A DNA stretch of 63,033 nucleotides, the filler included, from Stramenopiles sp. TOSAG23-6 (lineage: Eukaryota): the NCBI GenBank assembly GCA_900128565.1. It is 12 parts of 12 records of this genome, joined end to end, with 100 filler letters (N's around TTAATTAATTAA, not from the genome) between each part and the next. Parts side by side here need not be neighbours in the genome. Positions count along the whole stretch, not along the records: positions 21,106 to 26,275 come from LT636962.1; 11 more parts are not named here. One strand, given 5' to 3'. This document shows, in pieces, positions 21,161-22,203 of the stretch. A program made the translations under genes and the position numbers. Position 1 is the first letter of the stretch. Each line of letters opens with the position of its first letter. The notes beneath the pieces are model-generated. The model searched no databases and was not told where the DNA came from. It saw only the letters and a list, made by a program, of their open reading frames with translations.

Positions 21161-22203
21161 GGAACCAGGTCCGTACAGAAACTTGTAGAAACATGTCAAT
21201 CACCTGAGCAAATTGAATTGCTATCTGCGGCATTAGGTTCCCCTGGAAGAGTTGTGGAGTTATCTATGGATGCTAATGGTAATCATGTTATTCAGAAGTG
21301 TCTTGGTTGTATGTCGTCACATGTATGTTTTATTTTTTTTAATTTCGAATTTATTTTTTTCGTACGAAATTTTGTACCTAACGATTTTTTTAAAAATATT
21401 TTTCCAAAATACATGCTCGTCAGTTTATTTATACAGCAATCACAGAACAATGTGTAGCAGTTGCAATGCATCCTCATGGTTGCTGTGTCGTACAAACATG
21501 CTTAGATGCTGCACGAAATACCATGCAATATGAGACATTGGCATCGACTATAGCTAGCAATGCATTATATTTAATGAAAGACGCATACGGAAATTATGTT
21601 GTTCAACACATTATCGAAAATGGAGTTCCTAGGCATACAACGGCTGTCGTCGAGAAGATTTTATCTAGCCGTGCTGGGATTTCTGAATTATCCCAACAAA
21701 AATACAGTTCTAATGTTGTAGAAAGTTGTTTGAAAAATGCTGAACCAAGACCTAGGACACAACTAATCAGACAAATATTTGAACCATCCACGACTGAGTT
21801 ATTACTTTCCCATAAATTTGGTAATTATGTTGTCCAATGTGCTTTTGCTGTCGCAAGCACCTTAGAACGAGAAACAATGGTTGAAGCCTTAAAACCCCAC
21901 CTTCCGGTTGTATTGAATAGCACAGGTGGTCGCCGTTTAGTGCAACGTATTTTGGAGAATATGCCAGGGGCTTTCCCTGTGGAACTGATCAATCGGGCAA
22001 CTGCAGAAAGTGAGCTTTTGCAGAGTAATGGCAATCACAAATCTCGTCATAGAAACGGAGAAAGTGTTTATAACTCACGACCATCTTACTCACATCATCA
22101 CAATCATAACAATTCCTATGATAATAATCGAGGATATAAAAACCATAAGAATCATAGTAATGGTAGAGTGAAAAGATGGAATAACAGAGGCAGAATGAGA
22201 TAA
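21161..22203 (+). CDS. Pumilio/PUF RNA-binding protein; 5'-partial. Intron 21323-21414 (GT-AT)
   Basis: PUF repeats GTRSVQKL, NGNHVIQKCL, HGCCVVQTCL, YGNYVVQHII, YSSNVVESCL, FGNYVVQ. Confidence 0.92.

Follow-up and report, generated by a model that had tools for sequence, protein, structure and literature searches.

A 92-nt stretch at 21323-21414 in the DNA of Stramenopiles sp. TOSAG23-6 is a spliceosomal-type intron in a GT...AT register and one copy of an introner-like family. The window analysed (63,033 nt in all) consists of AT-rich eukaryotic contigs chained by runs of N and one short linker, and its DNA was found again in seawater metagenomes and metatranscriptomes. The intron is hosted by a PUF-repeat gene, the downstream exon of which matched Pfam PF00806 (3.8e-33). 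Eight PUF homologues were colinear with the gene once exactly 92 nt were taken out (tblastn), the best of them having 42% identity over the exon. Their downstream high-scoring segment pairs (HSPs) started at 21415-21424, and in 7/8 homologues at 21415-21421. In homologue P0005, residues 185 and 188 flanked exactly the two residues (H, A) that are left after removal of the 92 nt. A homologue search aimed at transcript-derived proteins from the same species returned the window's own protein (100%), with all others at or below 42-45% identity.

The cut at this intron can slide 4 nt to the left or 1 nt to the right with the product unchanged, giving six equivalent registers. An AG lies in frame 9 nt beyond the AT end, and its use would remove A-R-Q. 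Residues of this region (R/K-Q-F-I/V-Y) were present in 7/8 homologue alignments, and homology favours the AT end at the PUF locus because these alignments keep the residues that the +9 AG would delete.

A family of similar introns in the window

The 14-mer core of the intron (21371-21384) had 47 matches in the window at up to 2 mismatches, against 0.57 expected. An nhmmer profile built from 21 copies gave 75 matches at E<=1 and 61 at E<=1e-3. Both ends were anchored in 48 nhmmer matches; 16 partial, tandem or degenerate ones were dropped, the copy at 20899-21002 was added by hand and three ends were moved to the family-aligned position. The curated set thus held 33 complete copies, on which the junction counts below are based. 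Copies were roughly 90-110 nt long, and the family took in every intron recognised in the window. The consensus comprised a donor GTAYGTTTT, a core in which a near-palindrome is followed by the branch-point-like box TACCTAAC, a T/A-rich tail of variable length and an end ...TTTTTYMMAATAYAT. The box presumably serves as branch point, a role that we assume from its likeness to yeast TACTAAC.

Identity between pairs of copies had a median of 69%, versus 54% for shuffles, and rose to 96% and 93%. The 93% pair comprised the PUF intron and the copy at 23183-23275, which lie on opposite strands in unrelated genes and have flanks about 55% identical, the level of shuffled sequence. Among the 61 nhmmer matches, 42 were in sense orientation beside a long open reading frame (ORF) and three were nominally antisense; one of these three lay 3' of the PUF gene on the same strand, one spanned a contig break and one was an inverted core. 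Many sequence-similar introns at unrelated gene positions, the mark of introners in the passages of PMC9860276 drawn on here, were thus found within one window. Beyond the window, a degenerate 16-mer pattern of the core hit at least 116 loci in metagenome contigs, with no family copy among the matches listed (nhmmer; core alone, E>=7e-5), and a 21-mer core gave 0 matches in the viral contigs collection and 0 in the genome contigs collection.

Reading frames and the AT acceptor

Among the 33 copies, G stood at +1 of the donor in 32 and T at +2 in 31. The 3' end was AT in 26 copies, AG in 5, TT in 1 and CA, an uncertain reading, in 1. In 22/33 curated copies, flanking ORFs of at least 30 codons each joined solely in the aligned GT...AT/AG register. 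For the 17 validated copies that end in AT, the first AG past the branch-like box was out of frame in 14, and 11 had no in-frame AG within 30 nt. Because the AGs are out of frame or absent in frame, the GT...AT reading of the family introns is well supported by reading frames, from which we infer that the spliceosome uses AT.

The AT that is used is neither the first AT nor one at a fixed distance, because the box lies 28-47 nt ahead of the 3' end and 2-8 other AT dinucleotides precede it; unused AGs also occurred inside several copies. The acceptor is marked by a conserved 3' motif, with Y-A at -3/-2 in 31/33 copies and a pyrimidine always at intron -3 (C in 25, T in 8). In step-2 spliceosome structures, contacts run from the A at -2 to the branch adenosine and from the last intron base to the donor G. 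On this picture, the last intron position alone would be altered here, to U or G.

Contigs from sequencing runs were compared with 22528-26275, a range that excludes the PUF intron. Contigs of an independent seawater DNA run spanned the exon-intron border in three places (to 23204, from 23270, to 25789), showing that the introns are present in that seawater population. In the polyA metatranscriptome X8, two contigs (records 18 and 24) stopped at 23180 and 25760; beyond these points, 62 and 34 letters of the contigs found no contiguous place. These positions are the leftmost equivalent joints computed for two introns (23180>23274, 25760>25862), and the stops are consistent with, and suggestive of, splicing at the copies 23183-23275 and 25764-25864. 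The joint rows listed held cross-mapping between family copies alone and no spliced joint, and among the contigs listed none lay over the exon junction of the third intron, 25963-26054. Summed contig depth on the intron copies (23153-23277, 25653-26275) was thousands-fold the exon depth, for RNA runs and DNA runs alike, since these positions collect contigs from every family copy. The family is therefore very abundant in the sampled populations, and family words were also found in RNA libraries.

Table 1. Exons, intron parts and family copies referred to in the text (positions along the window).
Feature	Position	Strand	Description
Upstream PUF exon	21161..21322	+	end ...TCA CAT; tblastn, 8 PUF homologues, HSPs 21134/21155 to 21304-21328
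Left CATG	21320..21323	+	exon CAT + donor G
Intron	21323..21414	+	92 nt, GT...AT; nhmmer E = 4e-25; joins ORFs of 65 + 262 codons, phase 0
Donor motif GTATGTTTT	21323..21331	+	family consensus GTAYGTTTT
Near-palindrome GTACGAAATTTTGTAC in conserved core	21362..21377	+	inverted pair, 11-nt arms, 91% complementary
Branch-point-like box TACCTAAC	21375..21382	+	putative function
Right arm AAAATACATG	21406..21415	+	element end ...ATAC, then terminal AT, then exon G
Downstream PUF exon	21415..22200	+	start GCT CGT CAG (A R Q); Pfam PF00806
Listed repeats confirmed	CATG 4827, 7742, 15045, 20899, 23275; TATG 25764; ATG 2854, 20688, 54452, 62717
Closest relative of PUF intron (93%), CCDC53-like gene	23183..23275	-	5-nt CATGT repeat; ORFs of 282 + 198 codons
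TATG...TATG copy	25764..25864	+	ORFs of 445 + 50 codons
Copy with TT exon end and TT intron end	39894..40001	-	weak ORF support: 108 nt divisible by 3, intron open in frame
Copy 96% identical to 4188-4282	3966..4060	-	upstream exon end TA; ORFs of 81 + 256 codons
GC-starting copy	4188..4282	-	upstream exon end CT; equal-length GT...AG register at +4 also in frame

Origin of the family and of its junction repeat

We favour, at about even confidence, an origin in which a non-autonomous DNA element gave rise to the copies. Such an element would bring the donor and the branch-like box; it would land at AT, weakly preferring the palindromic context C-AT-G, and would duplicate those 2 bp in doing so, the second AT being taken as the acceptor. 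Since copies usually follow an exonic AT and end in AT, the GT...AT cut removes the element together with one AT and restores the frame exactly. Transposition at the DNA level would also accord with rearrangements seen among the copies, namely tandem copies, internal duplications and two inverted cores. A more specific form of this origin is put forward tentatively: the acceptor dinucleotide might be whatever 2 bp were duplicated on landing (AT mostly, TT sometimes), with the cut falling two bases past ...AATAC, about 28-47 nt past the box, and U tolerated in the last position.

A previous, sequence-only reading of the window had reported terminal inverted repeats with a (C)ATG duplication around the PUF intron and had offered two explanations, a miniature inverted-repeat transposable element (MITE) inserting at (C)ATG or an RNA stem between the intron ends. 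CATG was found as described at 21320-21323 and 21412-21415 (the start at 21319 being the A that precedes the first CATG), and all 11 other positions listed were starts or ends of copies with the repeat named. The MITE-like explanation found support as to a multiplied, transposon-like intron family with a short junction repeat that coincides with the splice sites; it found none as to a duplication of 3-4 bp. CATG is not a 4-bp footprint: its C comes from the ...ATAC that closes the element, its left G is that of the donor, and its right G is a base often met in the exon.

The inverted repeat and the CATG duplication are one short palindromic junction, common to the family and seen twice. The junction (C)ATG(T) is self-reverse-complementary and therefore resembles a direct repeat and an extension of a GTAT/ATAC terminal inverted repeat (TIR) alike. 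At the PUF intron, a repeat search over 126 nt returned arms of 10 nt (21320-21329 and 21406-21415, 9/10 complementary) that take in the flanking CAT/ATG; family-wide, ATGTA/TACAT alone holds, whereas a clear TIR of an introner has at least 6 nt (PMC9860276). The same AT-rich 126 nt held 15 further inverted pairs. A direct repeat TCGTCA (21314-21319 and 21417-21422) was rejected as a target-site duplication (TSD): it lies outside the CATG copies with the order swapped, and chance alone would give a 6-mer repeat in a stretch of 126 nt.

Base counts at the junctions well exceeded those of coding sequence. Of the 33 upstream exons, 22 ended in AT, a dinucleotide that precedes 13.2% of the GT sites in long ORFs (P = 2e-12), and G followed the intron in 21/33, against a background of 19% (P = 3e-8). 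C at exon -3 (11/33, P = 0.013), Y at +2 (24/33, P = 0.0015) and R at -4 (22/33) completed a weak, roughly palindromic site preference, R-C-AT-G-Y. Left and right ends were then re-paired at random in 20,000 permutations. Covariation between exon -3 and intron -3, the check proposed for a target duplication, was absent at window scale (11 matches vs 10.5 permuted, P = 0.50). By the rule of the sequence-only reading itself, there was no covariation beyond composition; the power of this check is low because the target hardly varies. Repeat lengths of 0, 2, 3, 4, 5, 6 and 7 were observed in 14, 5, 6, 3, 3, 1 and 1 copies, compared with permuted means of 15.4, 2.6, 4.5, 6.4, 2.3, 1.4 and 0.4, and long repeats were not in excess.

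Three points argue for a 2-bp duplication. The first is the copy at 39894-40001: TT stood upstream in 3/33 copies, and the single copy that ends in TT is one of these three, which gives the window its sole locus-specific match of the 2-nt repeat. The sole excess in the permutations, at -2 (27 vs 24.6, P = 0.03), was due to this copy. The second is the equal retention of the exonic halves of the repeat (AT 67%, G 64%), against 94-97% for the splice-critical halves (donor G in 32/33, terminal AT or AG in 31/33); a rough estimate for a 2-bp repeat decaying at this divergence comes out near these rates. The third is the weak palindromic preference.

A number of observations weigh against insertion with duplication. 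Within-locus matches stood at chance at -3 (the 11 vs 10.5 above), -1 (22 vs 22.4) and +1 (21 vs 20.5), the last being uninformative because the donor G is invariant. AT...AT cannot be told from a site preference because AT hardly varies, and a repeat seen only across introns counts as "ambiguous" in the part of PMC9860276 that deals with such repeats, where a TSD calls for at least one position that matches locus by locus. Four ORF-validated copies that end in AT had no upstream AT (239-334, CT; 3966-4060, TA; 4188-4282, CT; 30659-30771, AA). Two of these four form the window's most similar pair (96%) and lie 127 nt apart in one gene, for which gene conversion between introns of one gene could be an alternative. 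C at -3 (33%) and G at +1 (64%) were unequal (Fisher P = 0.026), which a symmetric target would not predict. The inverted repeat proper is just GTAT/ATAC, and in 11-14 of 33 copies it was broken to GTAC with no compensation. Of the window's 46 ORFs of at least 150 aa, 39 were searched for domains, and none of the 39 had one of a transposase, reverse transcriptase or integrase; an autonomous transposase partner with the same termini, for which the sequence-only reading had proposed a search, was not found among them. No complete copy in the window lay in clearly untranscribed DNA or in antisense. We know of no transposon superfamily that a 2-bp AT duplication fits. Rfam and tRNA scans of the window returned no matches.

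Alternative origins and registers

Entry without duplication is a less likely origin. Here the element would already carry its terminal AT (GTAYG...ACAT) and enter AT/G proto-splice sites, either by reverse splicing with reverse transcription and recombination or by duplication-free transposition, so that identity between exon end and intron end would reflect site preference. Composition explains the junctions equally well, locus-specific matches not being in excess, and the four validated copies without an upstream AT, the youngest pair among them, are in keeping with it. Nearly all copies are in sense orientation inside genes, all splicing signals are conserved along the element, and no transposase was seen in the ORFs checked. 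For fungal introners with neither a TSD nor a TIR, reverse splicing has been put forward; most non-fungal introner families carry DNA-transposon signatures (both from the passages on introner origins in PMC9860276). Entry without duplication gives no reason, however, why the preferred exon end should match the dinucleotide at the intron end, nor why the TT-ending copy follows a TT exon end. The inverted cores in two minus-strand intron-like stretches, the tandem copies and the internal duplications also point to events at the DNA level.

An AT...AC register, 2 nt to the left, is improbable. It would make the copies U2-type AT-AC introns with compatible first and last bases (A in the first position being compatible with C in the last), and no new acceptor rule would be needed. 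It yields the same mRNA as GT-AT wherever AT is repeated, as in the six registers of the PUF intron. In the four validated AT-ending copies that have no upstream AT, however, the intron would start with CT, TA, CT or AA, and the GT-AT register is favoured because it alone keeps the conserved donor in copies without the repeat. In 31-32 of 33 copies, the extended donor GTAYGT had its GT at +1, and copies ending in AG, AT or TT had a common aligned end. U12-type AT-AC introns, which have an ATATCC-type donor and a box close to the 3' end, do not match either: the donor here is GTAYGTTTT, no U12-type donor was found, and the box stands 28-47 nt from the end, a long distance for a U12-type intron.

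The second explanation in the sequence-only reading, in which CAUGUAU and AUACAUG pair in the pre-mRNA, bring the splice sites side by side and take the place of AG recognition, as happens in the nonconventional introns of euglenids, is very improbable. The minimum free energy (MFE) structure of the PUF intron did close with a 7-bp helix (probability about 0.96), and G1-C(-3), U2-A(-4) and A3-U(-5) could pair in 27-32 of 33 copies. However, no candidate pair had changed on both sides, and paired counts equalled the permuted means at every pair. At +4/-6, 17 copies had T-A, 11 had C.A with no compensating change and one had C-G; +7/-8 could pair in 15/33 copies and +9/-10 in 3/33. These counts were taken from anchored ends, a MAFFT alignment of 30 copies having lost the 5' register. 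When copies were folded by partition function together with 10 nt on each side, leaving out 4 that had N there, the probability of G1-C(-3) exceeded 0.5 in 6/29 copies, the PUF intron among them, with a median of 0.04. The fold of the PUF intron was no better than that of shuffles (z = -0.97; 35/200 shuffles at least as stable). The copies also have a canonical GT 5' border, a yeast-like extended donor and a branch-like box, none of which occurs in euglenid nonconventional introns. As a general mechanism, the stem was rejected for its lack of compensation and the rarity of the terminal helix, predicted in 6/29 copies.

It is just as hard to believe that the copies were never mobile and owe their likeness to one long consensus imposed by a demanding spliceosome or to homogenisation by gene conversion: the consensus does fit every intron recognised in the window, the signal-like parts are best conserved and the 96% pair lies 127 nt apart in one gene, but the spacer between signals is common to copies too, there are subfamilies, by length and by sequence, in which 5' and 3' variants are linked, and 93% identity was found across unrelated genes on opposite strands with unrelated flanks.

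Comparison with known systems

The comparisons that follow draw on the passages of the cited papers that treat each system. Introners that carry their own 5' splice site and recruit the 3' site that the duplication provides have been reported for Micromonas IE1 (PMC11282704) and Chrysochromulina family 5 (PMC9860276). Micromonas pusilla IE1 has a 3-nt TSD (PMC11282704), and family 5 of Chrysochromulina sp. has a 4-bp TSD and no TIR (PMC9860276). Like both, the present family is a short, non-coding, multi-copy element that lies in sense in genes and carries the donor; the last intron bases repeat the upstream exon end, and removal would, to judge by reading frames, give an exact mRNA. Unlike in both, the repeat and acceptor here are AT (rarely TT) and not AG, and the repeat is 2 bp, nearly invariant and, one TT/TT copy apart, without the locus-specific signal that those authors require. 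AG and AC were the sole familiar 3' sites listed in the curation passage of PMC12130899.

MITE-derived introns of Fritillaria borealis are similar in mass gain, a non-AG 3' end and use of an exonic repeat as 3' site (PMC11282704, PMC13326754). They are removed by a modified major spliceosome, with divergent U2AF paralogues that bind non-AG ends (same sources). In contrast to the strong GTAYGT donor here, Fritillaria introns are mostly AG-AC or AG-AT with a non-canonical 5' end; the 5' ends of the present copies are GT and not predominantly non-GT. The family is thus set apart from Micromonas and Chrysochromulina by its AT acceptor and from Fritillaria by its fully canonical donor.

Amoebophrya introners share with the present family a marine protist host, repeated introns, TIR-like ends, short flanking repeats and non-canonical borders (PMC11282704, PMC7789003). 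Their repeats, however, are 3-5 nt and variable and both borders vary, whereas one border is canonical here and the dinucleotide is fixed. Euglenid nonconventional introns also have repeat-like junctions and pairable ends (PMC11282704). That type needs conserved end pairing and lacks GT, branch box and pyrimidine tract (PMC11282704), whereas GT and the box are conserved here and pairing is neither conserved nor compensated. An end-joining structure with both borders non-canonical was likewise not what we found, GT being present at 31-32 of 33 donors.

Literature searches on MAST-3 and on non-canonical GT-AT introns of protists found no description of this family. The intron and splicing passages of two papers on MAST single-cell genomes, PMC5778133 and a 2026 single-amplified-genome preprint, held none either.

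Significance

Should RNA confirm the GT...AT cut, a free-living marine protist would have most of its introns as young copies of one element spliced GT...AT. That an intron can be made by a transposon, and a splice site by the footprint, is an idea that would then reach a non-AG acceptor, and a second, independent system would stand beside the tunicate Fritillaria for relaxed AG recognition (U2AF, step-2 factors). On the tentative, more specific form of the origin given above, it would be a genome-wide splicing system in which the 3' splice site is written by the footprint of transposon insertion and the donor is fully canonical, unlike in Fritillaria or Amoebophrya. Gene finders that insist on AG would mis-model most genes of the organism, and published gene counts or pseudogene calls may therefore need revisiting. 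The window-scale tests of the duplication and stem ideas are the contribution made here. They also call for caution, in that a palindromic junction mimics both TIR and TSD, and a nearly invariant 2-bp target is unprovable as a duplication from one window.

Atypical copies and other features

The near-palindrome at 21362..21377 formed a 6-bp hairpin in the MFE fold of the PUF intron; its 5' arm differed among other copies, apparently without compensating changes (judged by eye, uncounted). Double-core or tandem copies were found at 596-848, 27309-27502, 50928-51033, 51578-51696 and 62717-62867. They were considered as nested insertions that would expose a duplication and were rejected as such, since they look like tandem or internal duplications without clean host sequence on both sides.

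At 596-848 (minus strand), two tandem copies (110 and 143 nt) both begin with ATACG in place of GTACG. Once these 253 nt are taken out, an ORF of 262 codons runs on in phase 0 into one of 91 codons, and none of the equivalent registers starts with GT. An A in the first position also occurred in the copies at 15537-15625 (plus strand) and near 26449 (minus strand). The donor G may be dispensable in some copies, or the genes with A-starting copies may be broken.

Two intron-like stretches, 49657-49745 and 49897-49984 (both on the minus strand), had the family 5' arm (GTACGTTT...), a canonical T-rich AG end and a reversed core. At 30659-30779 (plus strand), the exon after the copy opens with GTATGTTT, identical to the first 8 nt of the intron, so that the cut can slide by 8 nt with the mRNA unchanged; this identity may be the remnant of a second copy. 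A degenerate copy without a GT start lay at 22452-22508 (plus strand), in an N-peppered stretch between the convergent PUF and CCDC53-like genes, and was the sole copy seen outside a coding context in the window.

A perfect inverted repeat of 761 nt (10562-12084; 100% complementary, arms 1 nt apart) was centred on a run of N, so that a portion of a long intron with three cores is present twice. It has the look of an inverted chimera from whole-genome amplification or assembly rather than of biology. ORFs on the plus strand changed frame at about 17800 (15791-17821 to 17776-19152) and about 59795 (57847-59799 to 59790-62843) with no intron-like sequence where they overlap, and these changes are probably single-base assembly errors.

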